Under the pieces are notes generated by a model that saw nothing but the letters and a program-made list of their open reading frames with translations, had not been told where the DNA came from and ran no database searches. Positions 3,791 through 57,489 of a stretch of DNA of 64,000 nt are shown here, piece by piece; position 1 is the first letter of the stretch; the number at the start of each line of letters is the position of its first letter. Origin of the DNA: Eledone cirrhosa (Eukaryota); contig OZ024743.1 in NCBI GenBank assembly GCA_964016885.1, forward strand, positions 253,518,001 through 253,582,000, written 5' to 3'. The position numbers and the translations under genes are program-made.

Positions 3791-3842
3791 TGACATATAT
3801 ATATATACATACATATATTCATACATACATACATATATATAT

Positions 3843-4006
3843 AGGAACAAGTAAGACCCCGACGGCTGAGCTCAAGCCGTTTCGACGGCTAATTCTAAAT
3901 CAGCCGTCGGGGTCTTACTTGTTCCTATTACCCACTCTACTACCCTAAGTATTGAGTACTTTGGTGCGTTATGGTCCACCTGGTTCCATACCACATTTCC
4001 TTCGTT
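3843..4006. mobile_element. Short fold-back element, Penelope pLTR family A, containing only HHR 3' parts
   Basis: aggaacaagtaagaccccgacggctga ... tcagccgtcggggtcttacttgttcct inverted pair; same sequence as 41557-42003 and 49410-51008; TA-rich tracts on both sides. Confidence 0.8.
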
Positions 4007-10624: not shown

Positions 10625-13090
10625 TTATGTGAAACTCCCACTTTGGGTAAACACCAACGAAGTGCTCGAATAGTTTATTAAACTGAACGAGAATGAATCA
10701 ACTTCCTTTTTACAATTCGATATCGACGGGGATTATTCATTTATCACATCAATATTACACAAACTGGCACTTATTTTCTCTAGGCGAAGATCCGACATCA
10801 CCAAAACGGAGATAGATGTAATCCTACATACCGCGAAAACTATAATAGAATTTGTTAATAAACACTGGACACGGAAATCATATGGTAATTACTTCGATAT
10901 CACCATAGGCTCCATGAACTCTGCTCAAATTACAGACCTTATGCGATTCTTTCTTATAATTTTAAAGGATTATCCGGATATAGGCAGATGATTATATTGT
11001 GATGATTCTCCATTAACGATAAAACATCTCAACACGTTGTCTTCCTTTAAGCAATATAACCTCTCTATAACTTTTGAGGATAGTATAAAAAAAGTAAACT
11101 CCTTAGACATCACTATGAACCTATTCTCGGGTCTTTACTGCCCTTACCATAATCCGAACAAAAACCTTTACTATATACATTGTGATGATTGCCCATTAAC
11201 GATAAAACATCTCAACACGATGTCTTTCTTTAAGCAATATAACCTTTCTATAACTTTTAAGGATAGTATAAAAAAAGTAAACTGCTTAAACATCACTATG
11301 AACCTATTCACGGGACTTTACTGCCCTTACCATAAGCCGAACAAAAAATTTACTATGTACATCGGGATTCTAACCACCCTTGTTCCATTATTAATGGCCT
11401 GCTAACAAATATTTCTATGAGGGTTTCTAGATTGTCGGTGCCCGCGGGGTTTTAATGGAAAATGCTTGGTATTATAACGAGGCCCTAAGTAGGGGTATAA
11501 AGTAATAAAAGATAAAGTATATACCAAAGACTACAACATCTGATATTTTTATTACCCACTCTATAATTAAAACGGATACTTCAGCCATGAATATCTATAT
11601 ATATAAAACTGAGGACGTCTGTCTGAGTGTGTGTATGTGTGTGAGTATGTGAGTTTGAATCCCTAAAACTCGAGAACTACCCAACAGATTTTTTCAAACT
11701 TCACATGTGTATTACTTATGTTTCCGAAAGTGTTATGCACATAACCAAATTCAACTTTTTGATCCCTAGGGCCAACATTAGGAGCAAAACTGCGTTTCTT
11801 TAGGTTTTTAGGGTTGTTTTGAGGCGTTACGTCAGGCCGATTTTCATGAAATTGTAACTATGTATTAGTCAGTCGCTTCTTAATTACCGTGAGCAAAGAA
11901 AATCCAACTTTGTTATGGCCTAGGGCACACATTAAGTGAAAAACTTCATTTTTTTCTGCTTTTTAGGGCTTATTTGAGGCGTTACATCTAGCCGATTTTG
12001 CCGAAATTTCAAGGCATAATATGCACATAAAAATAATTCATTTTCTTGATCTCCTAGGTGAAAACCTGCATTTTTCCTGCTTCATCGAGGAAAATAATAA
12101 AGATTATCCAGCCATCAGAGTATTCTGTTAATTTTCTTTACATATTGTCCAGGCATGCAGTTTTTCCACGATTAGGTCTGTTGGCGGCCCGCGTTCCAAA
12201 ATACCTTATCCCGTGCAACGCCGTGTATCACTGCTAGTTATTAATAATAATAACATCCCTTCTATTAATTTAAGAATCAAATCGAAATGATAGTGACTGC
12301 TTTCATCCTGGAACTAATCACAACTTGTATATTACTACTGTAAGTAAAAGGCAAATGATTTCTAACACAACACCATACACACGTAAGATCACTGCACCTC
12401 CACGTATGAAGCAATCTCGCAATAATGAACATAATAATTTTAGGATAATAGACAATGCTAATAATACTTCAGCTTATACGTTCAATAAATCTATAGATTA
12501 TAGAACATATATACTCACAAACAAAGATAAAGCAAAAAATAATGGACATTTAACTAGAGGTCACAGAAATAATAGCTATAACAAAAGCTCACAAACTCTA
12601 GAACACAAACAAATACACACTAACTCTAATGATGAAAACAACAGTATCCAAGCAACAAAAAATATATCCTCTTAGTCCTGGAAAAAGAGGAACCACAAAA
12701 GAAAAATCCCGTGGTATAATCTACCATACAGTGCTCATTAATAAGCCCTCTAACCACCCAACCAACATAACCAAAACCCGAGGAAGAAGTCTCTTTGAGG
12801 CTTTCCCGCAAATCAACTAACGAGCAAATTTTCCCCGATCATTCTACACACTATAATGAAGCGCTAACGTAGAATGCACTAAGTACGCAAACGAAATTTC
12901 TATACAGAAGTAGCCACACCAACAGCTTTCTTTACAATACGTTAGAAGCATTTCACCTCAGCTCATATCATAAGGTATTAAATAGAAACACTATTGGAAA
13001 TCGGTTACGCTAAAGGATGTATTTAAACATAAAATCAGAGGCAATTTCGGCTTGTAAATATAAATTATATAAAACATTGTATCATAATGG
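10625..13090 (+). mobile_element. Degraded Penelope-like element (RT, Asn-rich linker, GIY-YIG tail) interrupted by a Helitron
   Basis: Translated motifs LWVNTNEV, FLQFDI, FDITIGS, KVNSLDITMNL..YCPYHKPN and C-terminal LN.KSE.ISACK parallel the 44050-45300 RT; internal 183-bp tandem duplication at 10998/11181. Confidence 0.8.
11594..12237 (+). mobile_element. Non-autonomous Helitron
   Basis: 5' TC (a|TCTATATATATAAAA); 3' ccgtgcaacgccgtgtatcactgCTAG|t; inserted between A and T without a TSD; internal tandem sub-repeats of about 150 bp. Confidence 0.8.
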
Positions 13091-26734: not shown

Positions 26735-27852
26735 CTTTGAGTCTCAGTCATTGATGTTAGTTAACTGGAAAGTTTGTTGAAATGAATATCAAGCCACTAC
26801 CTGCAGCCTCAGATATTCAGGACGTATCGGAGGGTTCTTGCTGTTCCCAGCAAGCAAGCCTTTTGAAGCGTTCCAAAAAGCGTGAAGGGGCCAATTTTGT
26901 TTAACCATCCCTGGAAAATTTTTGAGATAATACCTAGTGCGCCTATGACAATCGGGACCACTTTGACTTCATGGCAGTTCCAAATCCTTTTTACCTCCCA
27001 CTTTAAGTCCTGGTATCGGTTAATTTTCTCCCTCTCCTTCTCTTGCACTCTCGTGTCGAATGGGCAGGCCACATACACAATCAGGCATGATCTTTTTTCT
27101 TTGTCCACAACCACCAGGTCAGGTCTATTGTGTTCCAGTTTCTTGTCCGTCTGTATCCTAAAATCCCACAGCACCTTCACCTGGTCATTTTCTATCACCG
27201 ACTCTGGCTTATGCTCATACCACTTCTCAGAATGTGGTAAATTGTTTACTTTGCATAGGTGCCAGTGGATCACCCTGCCCATCACATCATGTCTCCAGCC
27301 CTTATAGTGAGTCTGGGCTAGCTGTTTACACTCGGATACAATGTGAGCCACAGTCTCCTCTCTCACTCCACAGATCCTGCACAGTGGGCTAGCCTCCTTC
27401 TTGTAAATATGGTGTTTCAACCACATCGTTTTGAGGGCCTGCCCTTGCGCAGCCATTAACATTCCTTCTGTAGCCTTTTTATGGTCTCCTCTTCTCAACC
27501 AGTTCAATGTCTGTGGGTCTCTGAATTCAGTTTTCTCAAAGAAGGTACTATGAAGGGATTTTTCTTGAAGGCTGCTCTTTCTCCTTGATGGTATTTCCTC
27601 CTTGGACATCCTCTGGTCTATTGTCCTCTCCATCAGTACAGTTCTGAGCATTGGCTCCTTACTATCAGTCACGTATTTGTGTAGGTTGTTTTTCTCCATC
27701 TGAACACAGTCCTCTATGCTGATAGGACCTCTTCCACCTTCAGATCTCCTTAAGTAGAGTCTATCGACATCACTCCTCTTCTGGAACATGTTGTAGATAG
27801 TCAATAGCTTCCTAGTCTTCCTATCCATTTCTTTTTGTTCAGCAACATTCCA
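26735..27852 (-). mobile_element. Dong/R4-type RLE non-LTR retrotransposon, 5'-truncated
   Basis: ORF 26809-27828 with CRICG..EETVAHIVSEC zinc knuckle, RHD, and PD..ACPFD..K..Y restriction-like endonuclease; 3' end runs into (TAA)n at 26721-26734, the known Dong target. Confidence 0.9.
26809..27852 (-). CDS. Partial RLE-LINE polyprotein (post-RT region, CCHC, endonuclease)
   Basis: Uninterrupted 339-aa frame that extends upstream as WNVAEQKE-MDRKTRK. Confidence 0.8.
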   Translation of the reverse strand, partial: WNVAEQKEMDRKTRKLLTIYNMFQKRSDVDRLYLRRSEGGRGPISIEDCVQMEKNNLHKYVTDSKEPMLRTVLMERTIDQRMSKEEIPSRRKSSLQEKSLHSTFFEKTEFRDPQTLNWLRRGDHKKATEGMLMAAQGQALKTMWLKHHIYKKEASPLCRICGVREETVAHIVSECKQLAQTHYKGWRHDVMGRVIHWHLCKVNNLPHSEKWYEHKPESVIENDQVKVLWDFRIQTDKKLEHNRPDLVVVDKEKRSCLIVYVACPFDTRVQEKEREKINRYQDLKWEVKRIWNCHEVKVVPIVIGALGIISKIFQGWLNKIGPFTLFGTLQKACLLGTARTLRYVLNI

Positions 27853-30800
27853 TCTCAGAATGGGCAGTATAAATGCGCATGGCTTGGGGTCGTCATGGAA
27901 GCAGGGTCACCTGCTCAACGACCTCAGGTCACTAAATATAGATGTAGTGGCCATCAGCGAGACCAGAATCTCCGACGCACGGGCCTTCGCACCGATCTTC
28001 GGCGGCTACGATGTGTACGCATCTCCCAGCCGTCCTGGATCGGGGTGGGGGAGTTGCTGTGCTTTTTCGGAGATGTTTGGATCTCGCCATACGGGCCATC
28101 TTCCTGGACCCAAAGGGTAAGTTGGTGGTGCTGGACGTGACCAGCGGAGACGGGCAAGCTTTCAGGCTAGTGGCCGTCTATGCCCCGACAGGAGCAGGGC
28201 GGCCTGATTTCTTCCGGCGTCTGTAGACCTTTCTTGGAACGACCCGCTATTTAGTGTTAGTGGGCGACTGGAACGGGATCTTAGATGCACGCTGGGACTG
28301 TGTGGGATTAGCGCATAGGGGTGGAGGGTGCAAGAGCCTCACCAACCTGCTCAGGCGTTTTGAACTGTCTGACAGGTACCGATTAGATTTCCCGAATGTG
28401 CCAATGTTGACTTGGACAAATCGCATAGGATCATCCAGATCATATCTAGATAGAGTATTTTGTAGGGAAATAGATAGGTCTAGCATAGGCTGTCCACAAT
28501 TCAAGATAGTCAGCTACACGGGCCACAAATTCGTGATCTGTGTGCTTGACTTAGATAGGCTTCATAGACGAGGACCCGGCTACTGGAAGCTAAACGCGTC
28601 GTTACAAGCGCGCAAGGCCTACAGAGACCGGATTAAACGAACTAGTTAAGCGGGCGTTGACGGGGGCCATCGTCAGCAAGTGGTGGTTTGCTCTGAAAAG
28701 AGGGATTAGAATAGAATCGATTAGGTTTAGTAAGGCTTTAGCAATATAGAAAAATAGAGCAGAGGGAGAACTAGTTAGAAAATTAGACGAGGCGCTTAGC
28801 AAAGGCATTGCGACCGACCTGCTTGCGGCGAAATTGGCCCTTGACCAATTATTCAATGCAAAGCCTGAAGGCTGCGTTGTCAGAGCTAGGGTGCGTGCTC
28901 TCAGACACGAGGGGATGAAAGCCGTTCCATGGGCTCGAGTGGCGGAGGCGCGTCGTGGCGACAAAGCCAAGATCCGGTCTTTGGTGGACCACGACGGGCG
29001 CATGCTACTCGATCCCGGGCAAATGTGTGAAGCTTTTCAGCGACACTTCGCTCAGCTGTTCTGGGGCAGCGGTGGGCCGGGTCGAAGGATGGACTTTAGT
29101 GTCTACCTCGACGGACTGCCGCGGCTCTCGGCCACTGAGGCGGAGTGTTGCGAAAAGCCGATAACAGCCGCTGAAGTAAGCGAGGCAATGACTGGCTGCA
29201 CAAGGGGCAAATCGCCTGGTTTGGATGGTCTGCCCTATGAACTTTACCTACAGATGCCAGACTTGTTCGGAGGCCTCTTGGCGGACGTGTACTGCAACTG
29301 GCAACAGAACGGGAGAATTCCCAGTTCTGTGAGCCGAGGAGCGATGGCACTGCTGAGAAAGGATCCGAACAAGGGGGATAACAGATAATTTCCGGCCCAT
29401 AACTCTGCTAAACAGAGTTCAAGATTTTGGCCAAGGTGCTAGCAAAGAGGTTGGCGCTTGTCGTTGGTGGTCTGGTGGGAGAGGCGCAGACATGCGCCAT
29501 TCCCGACAGATCCATCCACGACAACCTCCACCTCATGCGATACATCGTAGAGAGGGTAGCTAGGGAACCTGGCACGGGTGGGTCCTTGATCAATTTAGAT
29601 CAGTCGAAAGCTTTCGGTAGGGTCGACCATCGTTACCTAGCAGCAGTCCTGAGGGCCGCTGGCTTTGGGCCCGTCTTCAGAGGCTGGATCGCTGCCATGC
29701 ACAGCGACATCTGCTCTGTGGTGAGAGTGAACGGTCACCTTTCGGAACCGTTCAACATCATGCGCTCGGTTCGCCAAGGATGTCCCCTCTCATCCCTCTT
29801 TTTCGTATTGACTCTTGAGCCATTACTGCACAAACAGGAGACGTTGAGGGGCGTCCCGTGCGAACTAGGATGCGGAAGATCCGTGTCAGCATATGCGGAC
29901 GATGTTACCGTAGTGGTGTCGAACTCCAAACACATCGAGGCAATGGGCACTATACTAAGAGAATACGAAGCGGTGACAGGAGCAATGATCAACCAGGAAA
30001 AGTCAGTGGGCCTGCAGCTCAGCACCTCGAGAGGCAGGTCCATGCCGACCAACAGCATCGTCGGACGCTGGACGGACGGACCGGTTAAATTGCTAGGGGT
30101 CTGGTTCGGTCCGGACCTCCAGACGGACAAAAACTGTGACGAGGTGACGAGCAGTGTGGCTTCTCTCACCCAGAAATGGGCGGAGAGGAAGCTATCCCTG
30201 AAAGGTCGAGTAGAGGTGGCTAACGCGTACATCGCATCTGTCATCTACTACCGCCTGACCGTCGTAACTTGTCCTAAGCCCCGCCTGACTGCGCTGGAGC
30301 GTTTGCTCTTTCGCTTTTTGTGGAAGGGACGCGCTCCGATGGTCAGGCGGTCCATCTGCTGTCAACACCCGCTACGTGGAGGGCTGGGAATGCCGTGGAT
30401 GATGATGCGCAGACACGCGCTCAGGCTACGTCATCTCCACCTCTTCCTCGACGGTGATCAGATGTGGTCGCCGTTTGCTAGACACGTATTTCCCCAGCTC
30501 GTTTCCTTGACGGAGCTGCAGTCCTGGGTCAAGCGAAGACCGAGAGGGAGCGCCTGGTGACTGGAATGTCTTCAGGCGCTCACAGCCCTCGACCAATCGG
30601 GCAATGTGATCGCTGGAAACTCCATCTCGGCGTTCTATAGAAGATTAGTGGAGGGGAAGAGCGACGACGTACTTGGGGAAACTCTAGGCGTCGACGAAAA
30701 TCAACTAACCAATCTCTTCGGAAAACTTTCGGGCCGGCACCTATGGACAATTTCCAGAAATCTCTGGCCTGGCAATGCTACCGAGGAGCCTTGCCAGTTC

Positions 30801-31507
30801 GGGATAAACTCTACAGACATGGAGGTGCCGTCAGGCGGGCATGTCGGAGATGCGCGCAGGGCGACGAAACCGTCCTGCACGCACTTGTCCAGTGTCCGAA
30901 AATTGCTGACTTGTGGGTTTATGTCGAACACCTGCTTTCGCGTGTAGGACGGATCCGGCTATCATCTGAGTCCATCGTGAGGATTGCCTCACCCTCTTCC
31001 TTTAGCCGGGAAGGGAAGGCAGTTTTTATCTGTCTGGTGGCCATAGCGAAAGAGATAGTATGGTGGACACGTTTGAAAGGGCTGAAGACGAGCATTTACC
31101 TCTTCGGTGATGCCCTGATTGACTTTTTCAAATTTCGTTTGAAAAGGGAAATCAGAGTAGAGAGGGAAGTGCTCTCTTCCCAGCATTTTGTTGAAAGATG
31201 GGTGAGAGAAGCTAGAATGGCCTGAGTGAATGGGCCTACTCTGAGTACGTATCTGTAAATTAAAGCTGGAACACTGGGAGAGGGCACTTGCCTTGGTGGT
31301 CAGGGTCTCTGTGGCCTTTTACTGGGCTTTTTCCACAAATGTCTCTTCGAAGTCTCCCCCTTATTGGGGAATTTTTCATTGTTATTTTTTGTTACATTCT
31401 CTGTTTTTGTTTTTTACACGCAGAAATGCCCATTTGTACCGTCCTGTATTGTCCTGCACTCTCCTTAATGTCTACTTTATGTAAACCCTTGTGGTTAATA
31501 AAGAAAT
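27853..31507 (+). mobile_element. Tx1/L1-clade LINE: frameshifted full ORF2 plus 3' UTR, ORF1 absent
   Basis: APE motifs (SINAHGL, SET, VYAP, GDWN, LDRV), RT (KSPGLDG, LDQSKAF, VRQGCPLS, YADD about 29892), CCHC (CRRC..GDETVLHALVQC); AATAAA at 31497 then (ATT)n. Confidence 0.92.
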
Positions 31508-35009: not shown

Positions 35010-35657
35010 TTTGATAAGGAAGTTTTCTCTAGAGAAAAACTTCCCGCCAAACCACAAATACCATCAAATCTTAAATAGGTCAACAGTTAAATTCTCATAC
35101 TCAACAACCAAAAACATAAAACAAAATATAAGTGCCTATAATGCATATAAATGTAAAAAAAACCCATAAATATAACACCAATACATCAAACTAACCATAA
35201 TATCTCCTCAAATACAGAATTAACGAAAGGTTGTAACTGTAGAAACAAAGCAAACTGCCCATTGAAAGGAAATTGTCTTGTTAACAACATAGTTTATAAA
35301 TGTAAAGTTAAAACTAAAGATTCTATTTGCTCATATATAGGAGCTACTTCTAACAATTTTAAGGTAAGGTTTAATACCCACAAACATAGTTTTAAAAATG
35401 CCGCACTGGCTAACACAACATCTCTAGCAGAAAAAATTAATAGTTATAGAAATAAGAATATAGAATATGATATGACCTGGAGTGTGCTCAAAAGGGCCAC
35501 CCCTTATCAAAATAATAGAAATGAATGTAGATTATGTTCCCAAGAACTATTTGAAATAATGAAATCTAAGGATATCCTATTAAATAAGCGACAGGAATTA
35601 ATTATATCGTGTAATCATAAACTGAGAAAAACATTTAAATATTATAAACCTAATTAA
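35010..35657 (+). pseudogene. Penelope linker and GIY-YIG endonuclease domain
   Basis: [39 protein letters not shown]...YIG.T..FK.RF..H, CRLCSQE, LLNKRQEL..C.H. Confidence 0.88.
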
Positions 35658-36520
35658 TAATATATGTTTTAGAAATTAATATATAATTTAATTTAAATGT
35701 AGTTAACCTATAAATTTAATTTAATTAACATTCTAATACAGATGAGATTAAAAAATATTGTGTAATCATAAATAGTGAAAAACTTTTAAATATTATTAAC
35801 ATAATTAATATATACTTTGTAAATTAATTTATAGATTAATCTTAGTTTATTTAACCTTTTATTAAAATTCCTTTACAGATGAAATATAACAAAATATCGT
35901 GTAATCAATAACAGAGAGATCTTTTTTAATATTATAAACCTAATTAATGTACATTTTAGAAACTTATTTATAAATTAATTTTAATTTAGTTAACCTATAA
36001 TTTTTATTTTTATTTAATTAGCTTAAAATTAAAACTCCTATACAGATGGATTGCTGAATATCATGCAATCATAAACTGAGATAAATTTTTATATATACCT
36101 AATTAATATATTCTTTACAATTAAATTTATATATATATATATATATATATATACATTATTTTTAATTTTTGTTAACCTACTATTATATTCTACTATAGAT
36201 AAAATACAAAATCTGTTTTAATTATTATTAATCTAATTAACATATACTATAGAATCTAATATATTATTTTTTAATTTAGTTAACCTATAATTTATATTCT
36301 ACTACCGATGAAATACTTGATTTGGTTTTCCCTATTACTAAATTCATTTCCTAATATTGATACCATAATGTAAATATTTTAATTTACTTATGATATAATT
36401 AATACTCTACTACTGTTTCACTTCAAAATTCCGCTTCAAATATTATAAACCTAAGTAGTATACACCTTAGAAATCAATATATTAACTAATTTTAATTTAG
36501 TTAACCTTTAATTAATAGTC
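35600..36520 (+). repeat. Degenerate AT-rich tandem array in the Penelope 3' UTR
   Basis: Recurring atatcgtgtaatcat..ttataaacctaattaat..ttagttaacct..cagatga units of about 100-160 bp. Confidence 0.65.
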
Positions 36521-41490: not shown

Positions 41491-41500
41491 TATTCCTTCG

Positions 41501-42003
<503 letters not shown>

Positions 42004-42126: not shown

Positions 42127-42152
42127 GTATAAAAATCAATACAATATAATTA

Positions 42153-42222
42153 CCTCATTACCAGAGGTTTCCCGAATGAGGCGAATACGAAAGAAGCGTC
42201 TTCATTCGTTCGTCAGACGAGG
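42153..42222 (-). ncRNA. Type I HHR
   Basis: cctcgt-CTGACGA-acgaatga...tcattcgg-GAAA-cc(tct)gg-TA-atgagg; neighbouring 42310-42560 resembles the family C 3' UTR. Confidence 0.78.
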
Positions 42223-42995
42223 CAATATAAAACATGGGTAAATACTTGGAAAGTCTCGTCAAGAAAATCAAAAAAAAAAATATATATAGACAAATGAATT
42301 AGAATATGAAATATATAATAATCTTTCAAGAAATATAGTTAGGTGTGTGTATATGTATGTATATACGCTCACAGATGTGCATATATGTGTATGCACATAT
42401 GTATACGTATAGTGAAAAAGTGTGTGTAAATCTAAAATTTAGGGCAAATGTATCTGTATGTCTGTAATCTACAGACAGAATAGTTACATCATAAGTATAT
42501 GAATATGAAGGCGCGCGCATAAACACACCTACACACACGTACACTTAGATGCGGAAGTAAAAGAGGTAAGGGAGTGTAATAATTAAAGGAAAGTATCAAT
42601 CTCGATATATTTATAAAAATGGAAAAATAATTTAGAAAGAAAAATTGTAGAAAGAAAAAATTAAAGAAAAAAAGACAAAAAAGGGTACATACATACACAG
42701 ACACGCATATCTCACAAAAGAAACGCAAACATATACATGCTTATATACACACGCACACTTACACATCCATACGTTCGATACGTACACACACACACACACA
42801 CACACATACTTACACTCACGCATATTGACCTGTTTGCATGCACACGCATAAAAATGAGTAAGTAAAAAAAGGGGGGGAGAATAAAAAAGGAACAAAACAT
42901 AAAACCTAGATGTCAAAACACGGATATAAAGACATATACACATACGCATACACATATACATACACACACACATACATATATACTTATATACATAT

Positions 42996-43651: not shown

Positions 43652-44053
43652 TTATGGAGGATAAGTATCTGAAAGTGTGTTAAGTTTATATGAGCTGGAA
43701 AGCAGGTGTGATCTCATGTGTGGGCAACTGGTGAAAATTTCCGTCTTTGTGTTCAGGCAGGTCTTTGGTGATTTTAGATTTTGCAATATCCAATATTTTT
43801 CATTTATGCAGAGCGTGCATTTTCTTGTTCCTCTAGCATATTCTTTAGATTGGTTCAAAATTGACCAATCTAATTTATATTGGATGCCTTGGTCTTTCAA
43901 ATCCCAAATTCTGCTAGCCAGAGTTGTTGTAAATCTGTTTTCTGGATGTCGAAAGGATGCGACATGTGAGTAATAACGCGTTTTGAATTTGTCTTGCGTC
44001 ATACCCACATATCGTTCACTGGTGGCTGGATGGTTATTGCTGATTGTTGTCAC
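43652..44053 (-). CDS. Penelope GIY-YIG endonuclease (partial)
   Basis: YVG, R, E and N catalytic-type motifs and a terminal C.H. Confidence 0.82.
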
Positions 44054-45298
44054 TTTAGCCGCATATACAATGACTTTGGTGTTGCATTTACCTTGTAATG
44101 GGCATTCACTTTTGATTCTACAGGAGCAAGTTTGATTTTCTCTAGGTGATATTTTGTTGAGGATATAGGACTTAATAGGGGGACCGCAGGAATAGCTAAT
44201 TTGACACAGTTTCTGTTAAAGATCTTATAGTATCTATGTGTTCTAGGGAAATGTTTATCTAGGAGCTCAAGGAATGTTTTGCCTACATTAGTTTTAACTG
44301 CTAAAGAGTAGGGGGGTGTGAACCAGATTATTTTTCTTTTCCTGTTTTTATGTTTAATAGAGTTAGTAGAGTTGGGTATGTATTTAATCGGTTCGCTAAA
44401 ACCGCTATTTTGGAGGGCTTTATTATAGTAGGGGGATGCCTTATTAAAAATAGCTTCTGAGGAAGAGAGGGTGGAGATCCTACGGCTAATATTAGGGATA
44501 AGGTTTTTAAAAACTATAGGTGGATGGCAAGATCCTTTATTTATATATTTTAAGTTCTCATTAGGTTTATGGTATGGTTTATAAGAAGCAGTAGGCAAAT
44601 CTAGGTTTATATCTAGGAAATCTACGTTGGAAAGGTTAGTGTCAATAGTAATTTTAAGATTAAAACTAGCGAAGATTTTTATTAAGTCTTTCCTTAATCT
44701 ATCTAAGTTATGGCCTATGGTAGTATGGGAAAGTATTAGACCATCGTCGCGATAAAGCCCAAAAATATGGTTAGGAAATTTTTCTTTAAGTATATGTAAG
44801 AGGAATAGGCCGAACAGATCACAAACATCAGCACTGTCGTAAGATCCCATTGAGACATCGAATGGGTTCTCTGGGTTAGATATTTTTACCCAAGTGTCAT
44901 TATCATTAAAAAGTAGAGTGTTCCTAGCATGCAAGATGCCATTCTCTTCAATATCGGAGATATTAGTAAACCCTCTAGCGAAATTTAAAGCTTTCGCTAA
45001 AAGGGTCTGAGTGATAGATGGGTAGAAATCTACAATGTCAAATTGGGTGAATCTAGAACTATTTTTGTTTTTAATATTATTAAACCAATGTACTACGGAA
45101 GAGCTATTTATCCATTGGAGTAATTTAGACTTACTTCTAATGTGTGTATTTAATTTATTTAAATTTTTTTTGCTGGCAAGACCAATATCAGTCTTAGCAG
45201 GGTTGATTAATCTACAACTAGGACGATTAATAAAGTCGGGTTTATGATCTTTAAGGGTGATATACGCAGAACGTTTAGCAAGTTTTTCTGTCCTATTA

Positions 45299-45300
<2 letters not shown>
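44050..45300 (-). CDS. Penelope reverse transcriptase (partial; listed ORF start lies in a microsatellite)
   Basis: RT motifs including YRDD. Confidence 0.85.
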
Positions 45301-45371
<71 letters not shown>

Positions 45372-45624
45372 ATATATATATATACATGTGTGTGTATAAA
45401 TATATATATATGTATATATATATGTATATATATATATATGTATATATGTATATGTATATATATATATTTAGTTGTTATATAGTAAGGTGTTTTATTGGTT
45501 GTGTCAAACGGTCCAATAACATTTTTGTTAGCAATATTAAGTTCTCCATGCTTTTGTATATCTCCAATTCCATTTATGGGAACATCTAGATGATGTAAAA
45601 CGGAGTATTTGTATCAAATAAAGT

Positions 45625-47917: not shown

Positions 47918-48725
47918 AATAGTGGCCACACGGCCTTCGCCCCTGTCTGTACTTTGCTCAAATTTATTCATAAGGCAATTATTGTCATCTGACATAATGT
48001 CCATTTTCTTTACAATGAAAGACGCTAAAAGGTATTTAAATATACCATAACATAATCTTAAAGAAAATATGTAGATTATCCAAATACAGAATATAATACA
48101 GAAAATAATAGAAAAATATATTCTACGAAAATTATAAAGCAATAATTACAGAACATCAGTATAAACAGTGTTTTAACTTTTTTATCTTTTTAGCATATAT
48201 GAAGGGTTCGGGGTGTCGTCCTAGTGTGGAACAATCTACATACAATTGGCTATGTGAGAAACAACCCTCTTCTAGATGGAGACCAACAACGTGTAATGTT
48301 TGACCTTGAGACTTATTGACTCTCACGGGTATTCGCAATCTTTTGAAACGAAATTGGATATCTGTTGGGATTAACGATATTCTAAATATAAATGCGATGT
48401 CCCCTTTATCACATCCAGTGAGGATTTGGGCTTCGATAATATGAGGCTGCCTTTCAGTCACAATCATATGCACCCCATTGCACAATCTTGGCTGATTTAG
48501 AGATCTGAGGAGCAGGTTGATTTGCCCTTTTTAAAGTTAAGTTTGTTTCGTAGCTTATGGGACGGTTCCAGAATGTTGCGAATTTCAACGGGATAATGAA
48601 CAGCTTCGTCTTCGTTGACAATTTTGTTGATATGTCTATTGGTCTCGCTACCTCCAGGAATCATTTGTGATATATTCTGTTGATGGCCTTACTGTGATGT
48701 TCTTGAGAACAAGAATTGCACTTTC
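47918..48725 (-). mobile_element. Helitron 3' fragment (Pif1-type helicase C-terminus and terminus)
   Basis: AIL..KN, DEAVHYPVE, LCNG, FRFKRL.IPVR..NKSQGQTL..VGL.L...CFSH.QLYV; terminal ggggcgaaggccgtgtggccactat resembles the hairpin+CTAG end. Confidence 0.82.
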
Positions 48726-48930: not shown

Positions 48931-49318
48931 CTGGGTATTGCAGCGTCTGTCATAAAAGCATGTGCACCATCCTAGGATGACCAGGCAGACACACCTGGAT
49001 GCGCACATAGACGTACACATGCATATAAACACTCACAACTACTCCCTAACCATAAAGAAATTAACACTTGGATGAAGAGAATTTATAATTGGATAAATAA
49101 TGCATGCCCTTATTTGGACATACCACACCCCTGATGGTACAGCCAGTAAACCACTAAACCAAACCCTTAGGCAGTCAATAACGAACTAGCTGTCCAAAAG
49201 GAAAGAGCTCAGCCAACGGGTCTCGACTCATTATGATATGTATATATATATATACACACACATATATATATAAATATATATATATATATGTGTGTATATA
49301 TATATACATATATATATA

Positions 49319-49405
<87 letters not shown>

Positions 49406-49422
49406 ATATAGGAACCAGTAAG

Positions 49423-49516
49423 ACCCCGACAGCTGAGCTCAAGCCGTTTCGATGGCTAATTCTGGACTAAATGAAAATTTATCCTGGTATTTAAATAGCC
49501 GATCTTCTCAAGGGGT
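49423..49516 (-). ncRNA. Type I HHR with U3-A8 variant core (family A, sense arm)
   Basis: acccc-TTGAGAA-gatcggcta...tagccatc-GAAA-cggct(tgagctc)agctg-TC-ggggt. Confidence 0.72.
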
Positions 49517-50821
49517 AATTCCATATATGGTCAAAGTGATTGTCAAAAATCAGTAGTAATTCTGTGGTTGCAAATTAGTAGGGGTGATGGTGGCTGAACC
49601 TGCCAGTAGGAGAAAGAGGGGAGGTGGTGGAGTAGACCCAATCAAGCGTTGGTAGTGCCAGCTACAGCTGGGCATGAGGTCAAAGAAGATACAGAGGAGG
49701 GGGAGGGGGAGGAAGTCGGAACGGTAGGTAGAACAATGGGGGGTAGAAATATATAGGAAAGAAAAAATACTGAGAGTGAAGAAAAGCAAATAAGTGTAAA
49801 GAAAAAAGTAAAGTAAATTAAATTCTACGACCTAGGTCTCAGGCTATTGTTAGGCTAGAATAAAATAAAGAAAGAAAGAAAGAAGTAAAGACAGAAATAA
49901 ATAAAGAAATAACGAAATAAGTAAAAGAACTAGGTGGGACGGATTAGGCAAGGACTCTTTTAAGAGGTATAAGTACGTAAATGATACGGTGACGGGTCAA
50001 CAAAAGGGGCCGAAATACTAAAGAGACTACCACGAAATAAACAATAAAGGTTTCCATCCCGGGCCAGCAACGACCCAGTGCAGCAAAGTGAACTTGTACG
50101 AGATAATAATTCTGAGTCCCGAGAAAATTATATACTAATGCTAACTCTATAAGATCTAAAACAAGCTACATGAAAGTTCGTACGAAATAAAGGTAGAATA
50201 CGGAGAAATAAATTCAGAATCCACCCCGCCCAGAAGAAAAGCGAAGCAAGAAATACTGAAACGAAAAAATAAGGCATAAGTGCCACTAAGAAATATAGAG
50301 GGCACAGAGAATAGTGGGAGCGGTCGGAAAAAGGGGGCAAGTATCCGGGGTCTAAGCCAACTGCTATAAAGGGCGGAGTCCGCCAAATCTATCATAGACT
50401 AGGGGAGGGGGGGGGGGGGGTACTAAGGCTACATGGGGCCAAAGGGCAGCCTCGGGTGGGCGAGAAAAGACGCCGACAAAGGAGAAGAGCTGGGGTAGAA
50501 GGACTAAGGAGAGAGGGGGGAAGGAAATAAAGGAAGCGATAAAAGAATACAAAGAAGATCTTACGTCTTCCTTGGCAAGCAGGGGTTACCCATTGCAAAA
50601 TCGGCAAGTGGGGTGTTATAGCCCTAGTCTGCCCCCCCCCCCCCCCGGGTCATTATGGGGTTTGAGTGCGAGGTAAGTCCTACGCAATCTATGTTTACAT
50701 GCAGTGACCAGTTCATCTTTCTTGTTTAGGAGTTGGTCCGTCGAAAACAGCATTTGTAAAGTTTTGTAAACCACAGAATTACTACTGATTTTTGACAATC
50801 ACTTTGACCATATATGGAATA

Positions 50822-50915
50822 ACCCCTTGAGAAGATCGGCTATTTAAATACCAGGATAAATTTTCATTTAGTCCAGAATTAGCCGTCGAAACGGCTTGAG
50901 CTCAGCTGTCGGGGT
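50822..50915 (+). ncRNA. Type I HHR with U3-A8 variant core (family A, inverted arm)
   Basis: acccc-TTGAGAA-gatcggcta...tagccgtc-GAAA-cggct(tgagctc)agctg-TC-ggggt. Confidence 0.75.
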
Positions 50916-51006
50916 CTTACTGGTTCCTATTACCCACTCTACTACCTCAAGTATTGAGTACTTTGGTGCGTTATGGTCCACCTGGTTCCTTACCACATTT
51001 CCTTCG

Positions 51007-51074
<68 letters not shown>

Positions 51075-51100
51075 TATATATATATATGTATATATATATG

Positions 51101-51212
<112 letters not shown>

Positions 51213-51237
51213 TATATATATGTGTATATATATATAT

Positions 51238-51277
<40 letters not shown>

Positions 51278-51298
51278 TATATATATGTGTATATATAT

Positions 51299-51360
<62 letters not shown>

Positions 51361-51493
51361 GTAATAAGAATATTTATATTTATATATGTTTGATATAACT
51401 ATAAATATGTAGGGTAGTACTAAGTACTAGCCAGTTACCGGTATGACAAAAAGCTCGATGCCTATTTTCAAGTGTTTTACAGAGCCGAGATAC

Positions 51494-57408: not shown

Positions 57409-57489
57409 TGTCTCCTGATGAATCCGATACTCCAGACATATCCTATTAATTGGATGTCTAAAAATACGGATGAAACCATGGTAGAGATA
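57409..57489 (+). ncRNA. Canonical minimal type I HHR
   Basis: tgtctc-CTGATGA-atccg...agacat..atgtct...cggat-GAAA-ccatgg-TA-gagata; all core nucleotides and three stems present. Confidence 0.88.

Follow-up and report, generated by a model that had tools for sequence, protein, structure and literature searches.

The locus considered here lies in a stretch of 64,000 nucleotides of contig OZ024743.1 of Eledone cirrhosa (the window), AT-rich, animal-like DNA that is rich in microsatellites. It carries a hammerhead motif in which core positions 3 and 8 are U and A in place of C and G, and the question that it raises is whether this U3-A8 state is a defect of one copy, a passenger in a spreading repeat, or a catalytic tertiary base pair that has been restored and kept. 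The reading that we regard as probable is that the locus is an insertion of a Hydra-clade Penelope-like element with a predicted self-cleaving hammerhead, in whose family U3-A8 is the majority and has been kept as a restored pair.

Hammerhead motif and predicted folding

The window contains a 162-nt inverted repeat, the arms of which are identical at 160 of 162 positions (2 differences) and sit in one 1.6-kb unit flanked by two (TA)n tracts. Each arm contains a type I hammerhead with the core UUGAGAA (U3-A8), three stems, and a GUC site. In the right arm, the motif occupies 50822-50915 on the plus strand and consists of stem I (50822-50826/50911-50915, 5 bp), the UUGAGAA core (50827-50833, with U3 at 50827 and A8 at 50832), stem II (50834-50842/50880-50887, 8 bp with one bulge) with a loop II of 37 nt, GAAA (50888-50891), stem III (50891-50896/50904-50909, 5-6 bp) with a palindromic loop III (50897-50904), and the cleavage triplet GUC (50908-50910), which fits NUH; the predicted cut follows C17 at 50910. 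The left-arm hammerhead has an equal architecture on the minus strand (49516-49423), including the 37-nt loop II, with U3 at 49511, A8 at 49506, and a predicted cut between 49428 and 49427. The invariant core nucleotides U4, G5, A6, A9, G12, A13, and A14 and the A15.1-U16.1 and G10.1-C11.1 pairs are present in both, and a Watson-Crick pair between positions 3 and 8 is possible in either arm and in most of the family, though apparently not in its C3 minority. A scan for the U3-A8 motif with equal stem criteria gave 2 matches in the window and none in any of 100 block-shuffled windows, which bears out the preliminary description of both arms as carrying this core with intact stems. Its statement that standard searches miss such a hammerhead also holds, an Rfam search of the whole 64-kb window at gathering level having given 0 matches; searches for CUGANGA only, or at the Rfam gathering level, undercount such ribozymes.

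The minimum-free-energy fold of either arm is the hammerhead three-way junction, and three helices surround the junction with stem I open, as in type I (pair probabilities of 0.45-0.98 in local folds). It should be noted that the folding energies of the arms are not better than those of shuffled sequences, and the z-scores (+0.36 and +0.40) are unsupportive. For stem I, a distal helix containing an internal loop, which bears on a possible tertiary contact with loop II, has a predicted probability of 0.74-0.99 in short folds and of about 0.3 in longer ones. In left-arm RNA that includes its true upstream sequence, stem I is predicted to be lost (pair probability 0.01 in two longer folds). In longer RNAs, the 3' strand of stem I is predicted to pair instead with an upstream C4 run (49581-49584, minus strand), which is possibly an off-switch or a folding artefact. 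Both a hairpin (−4.9 kcal/mol) and a homodimer (−26.3 kcal/mol) are predicted for the palindromic loop III, whose central hexamer is unchanged in 7 of 7 aligned rows; a palindrome and homodimer of this kind are known from hammerheads that act as dimers, according to the available text of PMC4209133.

The U3-A8 motif is predicted to work like a canonical type I hammerhead, and the hammerhead of the arms is likely to be active. In the available text of PMC3088659, U3-A8 covariants are described as natural and active in vitro. In pairwise mutagenesis, as reported in the accessible part of PMC9901934, the 3-8 pair was rescued only by a G-C swap, and a U-A pair is therefore no guarantee of activity. 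That two core changes should fall on exactly the paired positions and yield a Watson-Crick pair is unlikely to be a matter of chance.

The insertion and its relatives in the window

Between a left (TA)n target tract (49236-49410) and a right one (51008-51387), the left arm (49410-49569, minus strand) corresponds to the 3' end (pLTR) of a long element copy, with the hammerhead inside it. It adjoins a non-coding stretch of about 1 kb (49570-50615, minus strand, with no ORF of 110 aa or more), the putative 3' UTR between the end of the ORF and the hammerhead, and beyond this lies the 5'-truncated C terminus of a Hydra-like GIY-YIG endonuclease (50616-50768, minus strand; LLNK...CxH), as recognized by ORF comparison. 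The right arm (50769-50930, plus strand) is a short 5'-truncated copy in inverted orientation, continued by a one-sided tail of 77 nt (50931-51007, plus strand) up to the shared 3' terminus of the family before the (TA)n. This terminus recurs at 3995, 41552, and 41992 (5 matches, as against 0.04 expected). Contig evidence indicates that 49570-49720 is multi-copy and contiguous with the left arm, and contigs of two runs from two organisms (X1 and X7) bridge 49569/49570, which shows the inner DNA to be genuinely upstream of the left hammerhead.

The 41-aa endonuclease remnant shares 43% identity over 35 aa (E 4e-10) with the C terminus of the ORF at 35157-35657; it has no match to the ORF at 43655-44215 and none in a Pfam search, and its comparison with a collection of longer proteins gave 2 candidates, neither significant. 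The remnant and the left hammerhead share the minus strand, which gives the pLTR hammerhead the sense orientation relative to the ORF. The (TA)n target, found in 4 of 4 insertions of the window, and CxH after a conserved N at the endonuclease C terminus, compared by eye with published alignment excerpts, are Hydra-clade traits. Further markers of that clade, the CxCX5C linker and the RWK and DKT motifs of the reverse transcriptase together with a lack of CCHH, would lie upstream of the point at which this copy is truncated. The inverted arms, the tail, and the endonuclease end together indicate a long 5'-truncated copy joined to a short inverted copy with a tail, an arrangement described for Penelope-like elements in the available text of PMC8557442. 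The locus is thus a single insertion in (TA)n, truncated at its 5' end and partly inverted, and the element from which it came was likely a Penelope-like retroelement of the Hydra clade. As parts of one insertion, identical at 160 of 162 positions, the two arms record one event, and their two hammerheads therefore count once.

The other insertions of the same family in the window are short: inverted insertions at 3841-4006 (plus strand) and 41558-41750 (minus strand) and a copy at 41851-42001 (plus strand). Each is truncated in loop II and lacks positions 3-9, so that these core positions are absent from 3 of the 4 family insertions. Most family copies apparently end in loop II, at 49460-49480, as indicated by these three and by a steep fall in contig depth, and the endpoints possibly reflect a stall of reverse transcription or a short non-autonomous form. 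At 41491-41507, a fifth terminus resembles the family 3' end before (TA)n with otherwise different upstream sequence; it perhaps belongs to a related family. Among the 7 rows aligned from the window, which are few, 85% of pairs are formed and there is one two-sided change, not above shuffles (216/500).

Adjacent to the insertion, at 49104-49223 (plus strand), is a diverged, dead homologue of the hammerhead region. The preliminary description saw there, at 49127-49221, a decayed relative that retains C3/G8. The homology stands, extending over about 120 nt with a local score of 44 that was reached in 0 of 500 shuffles (maximum 38), and so does the decay: A9, G12, U16.1, and the 15.2-16.2 pair are lost, and one stem II pair has undergone a compensatory change from G-C to A-U. 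The C3/G8 reading, however, is obtained only through a hand-placed gap, a 1-nt deletion at position 9, and both MAFFT and a pairwise aligner picked other registers. Two more type I hammerheads in the window, at 57409-57489 (plus strand) and 42151-42224 (minus strand), have a canonical C3-G8 core and belong to other repeat families; the latter ends beside a (TA)n tract.

Positions 3 and 8 across the family

Family counts are based on 4 of 19 listed sequencing runs (X1, X7, X9, and X17), aligned to 49412-49720 at a likeness of at least 80%, sequences less than 80% alike falling outside them; read and contig counts are unphased, and contig depth is not equivalent to copy number. In X17, raw reads of a reduced-representation library, position 3 (49511) is U in 294 of 354 reads and C in 60 of 354, the C3 reads having 19 start places. 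In the contigs of X1, U3 accounts for about 76% of depth and C3 for 24% (30 contigs), and C3 is carried in all by about 17-24% of core-spanning sequences. In X7, from a second organism, contig 13 covers 49500-49683 and departs at 2 letters, neither of them in the core; the 4 contigs of X9 all lie outside the core. U3-A8 is the family majority and is common to two organisms. Pattern matches in metagenomes (0 loci in one scan and 2 in another) are set aside as chance, the two loci (L001 and L002) sharing only a 19-base word, without hammerhead context.

Position 8 behaves differently from position 3. No variant at position 8 is present among the 40 of 70 variants listed. In the X1 contigs G8 amounts to less than 3%, because the tally for that run gives 49453 as its only T>C place in the stretch, and in the X17 reads it is probably below about 11.5-12%, the lowest listed share being about 11.5%, if the variants are ranked by share. 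On that assumption, a G8 variant at 17% would outrank those listed at about 11.5%, and the 60 C3 reads would include at least about 19 without G8. Since C3 stands at 17-24% while G8 is rare, the minority looks like a C3/A8 mismatch and not like covariation, and the likeliest reading is that a multi-copy C3/A8 minority exists in the family. The covariation at positions 3 and 8 that had been expected within the family is thus not seen: position 3 varies and position 8 is apparently constant in these unphased data, among the variants listed.

Elsewhere in the motif, position 7 is variable in 39 of 361 reads (G to U at 11% of reads and of contig depth), stem III shows a compatible change from G-U to G-C at 72-81%, and position 10.2 changes from A to C in 30-45%, which weakens the base of stem II. 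Depth in X1 is about 20-fold lower over the core than at the 3' end; a 28-fold drop in X17 is partly an artefact, because reads end at AATT sites (49458, 49476, 49517, and 49573). Among the variants listed, 1 of 13 core positions is variable as compared with 11 of 81 other hammerhead positions (P = 0.46), and the core is thus indistinguishable from its flanks in conservation. The earlier proposal that the motif points to selection for activity rather than decay gains no support from this comparison or from the C3 minority apparently without G8. Given a multi-copy minority with C3 and apparently no G8, any selection on the core is probably weak or acts only at times.

The ancestral state is probably C3-G8 and U3-A8 derived, since CUGANGA is found in the two other hammerheads of the window and in 26 of 26 published rows of the Hydra clade and the dead homologue lies adjacent. 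The proposed switch within the lineage agrees with this in direction, but its timing cannot be set from one dead copy. In the source elements of the lineage, the C3-G8 pair would have changed to U3-A8, and the new state would have been retained because nucleotide 8, which this pair holds in place in the active site, regains a Watson-Crick partner. Self-cleavage of the RNA is predicted after GUC; tandem transcripts of the element would thereby be cut into units, as proposed for Penelope-like elements in the available text of PMC4209133, and the cleaved units would be reverse-transcribed into (TA)n targets. That the present copies record a compensatory path, from a C3-G8 ancestor through an amplified C3/A8 mismatch subfamily to the U3-A8 majority, is a doubtful extension of this scheme. 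If true, the copies would document in nature how a catalytic tertiary base pair passed through its mismatched intermediate, which dimer folding via the palindromic loop III possibly sheltered, and they would put the need for hammerhead cleavage in the spread of Penelope-like elements directly to the test.

An alternative that we consider unlikely, but to which some weight must be given, is that the ribozyme is a passenger: U3-A8 was fixed earlier, the family spreads regardless of cleavage, and the core is drifting, the C3/A8 minority being neutral and perhaps the result of repeated slippage at the margin of the C4 run in stem I. The frequency of C3 where G8 is rare, the 10.2 mismatch in stem II, and the lack of any excess of core conservation all agree with this, as do the low X1 depth over the core, the 3 of 4 window insertions without positions 3-9, and a similar A>G change beside a G4 run at 49580 (7 of 24 reads); Naiad elements, moreover, proliferate without canonical hammerheads, according to the accessible part of PMC8557442. 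However, the other 12 core positions are without a variant among the 40 of 70 listed, the stems remain paired, and U3-A8 is common to the second organism, whereas truncated daughter copies are uninformative on selection acting on source elements.

It is also possible, if improbable, that the C3 minority is a canonical C3-G8 subfamily in which G8 is hidden by clipping or listing and positions 3 and 8 do covary; this concerns the minority alone and is compatible with the reading of U3-A8 as a restored pair kept in the family majority. Two T>C places of X17 fall outside the 40 of 70 variants listed, the cleanest of the C3 reads differs at 2 further letters, and X1 depth rises by about 46,000 between 49507 and 49511, as compared with 43,000 with C3, which resembles clipping. 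Against this, only one T>C place occurs in X1, in spite of 19 contigs with U7 over the adjacent base, X17 has no depth step (361 versus 354), and the C3 reads that would be without G8, if variants are ranked by share, number at least about 19 of 60.

A different register is very improbable. In it, position 7 would be missing from the core, leaving Y-U-G-A-G-A, an additional A would precede stem II, and Y3 would pair with an unchanged G8, so that there would be no U3-A8 pair. However, the G in question changes to U in 11%, as a free position 7 would and unlike G8, the standard register needs no gap, and no active core without position 7 was found in the parts of the literature that the search covered. 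That CUGANGA is the family consensus and both positions are mutated in this insertion only can be rejected as scarcely credible, for although the arms stem from a single event and the window has no further copy that extends across the core, U3 in 294 of 354 X17 reads and about 76% of X1 contig depth, G8 below 3% in contigs, and the U3-A8 contigs of the second organism (likeness at least 80%) make the state a majority in two organisms and sustain the view that it is no private mutation.

Relation to known hammerheads and to other elements of the window

U3-A8 in hammerheads has already been published (2011), also in Penelope elements (2014), and the present locus is another example in another clade and host; what appears to be new is the full three-stem U3-A8 form in a Hydra-like family, together with an apparent mismatch subfamily. 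The swap is the same as that in several natural hammerheads described by Perreault et al. (2011, PMC3088659), but in the available text of that work the covariants are not tied to this element family and no population of mismatched copies is described. U3-A8 hammerheads as a family trait have been reported for Cercyon Penelope-like elements of Schistosoma mansoni, with about 1,300 matches (Cervera and De la Pena, 2014, PMC4209133). As far as the accessible text of that paper extends, the likeness comprises a type I hammerhead in the pLTR with U3-A8 replacing C3-G8, close pairs on opposite strands, many truncated copies, and a palindromic loop III. The Cercyon hammerheads, however, are minimal, helix III being reduced or absent and stem II preceded by an additional base, whereas here stem III has 5-6 bp, there is no extra base, loop II has 37 nt, and the element is Hydra-like. 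Assignment to the minimal hammerheads of Penelope-like elements is rejected: these have helix III absent or of 1-2 bp and an unpaired base between positions 9 and 10.1, whereas stem III is present here and the standard register has no such base; the palindromic loop III that would allow dimer folding is shared.

The Hydra clade, including Hydra-1_Obim (Craig et al., 2021, PMC8557442), resembles the present element, in the available text, in the (TA)n target, the N...CxH endonuclease end, a sense hammerhead 3' of the ORF, and an inverted 5'-truncated copy with a one-sided tail. It differs in that the 26 Hydra rows of file S2 (25 families), all CUGANGA, have a short loop II and a short stem III, the tail is 77 nt here as against the 30-40 described, and the hammerhead lies here about 1.1 kb past the stop. 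In the partly covered literature, no U3-A8 hammerhead of the Hydra clade or of octopus was found, and the supplements of PMC4209133 and PMC3088659 may list more U3-A8 families; nor was published activity of a C3/A8 mismatch found in this partial coverage, which takes in few subscription papers. The non-LTR retrozymes (bioRxiv 10.64898/2026.07.22.740005) likewise have type I hammerheads in pLTR-related animal repeats but are, in the accessible text, head-to-tail non-coding tandem repeats, whereas the present element is an insertion with inverted arms that retains a coding remnant. Identity with a retrozyme is rejected, there being inverted arms and no head-to-tail tandem array of hammerhead units. 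The occurrence of U3-A8 together with apparent C3/A8 copies in one high-copy family bears on how a tertiary pair switches in nature, and the mixed copies bear on whether cleavage matters for transposition, which is called unclear in the available text of PMC8557442.

Other elements are present in the window. Hydra-like Penelope reverse transcriptase/endonuclease ORF remnants lie at 43652-45474 (minus strand), 35157-35657 (plus strand), and 10992-11405 (plus strand), the first two with a CxCX5C linker, as judged by eye; the reverse transcriptase at 44050-45474 resembles, also by eye, the Hydra-1_Obim sequence as far as available, a likeness that may point to a cephalopod host, and a Pfam search of two of the Hydra-like ORF-remnant loci gave no match. 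A decayed Pif1/Helitron-like helicase fragment is located at 48156-48700 (minus strand), with a weak, below cut-off Pfam match to Pif1_2B (E 0.023), and ORF remnants of two kinds of non-LTR retrotransposon were recognized by eye in translations at 26809-27906 (minus strand) and 28227-31225 (plus strand). A MITE-like inverted repeat of 266 nt (51490-51755/52139-52404), 94% alike and with its arms 383 nt apart, contained no hammerhead in the scans made of it. A degenerate tandem repeat of about 139 nt (35604-36300) first overlaps and then follows the end of the endonuclease ORF at 35157-35657.
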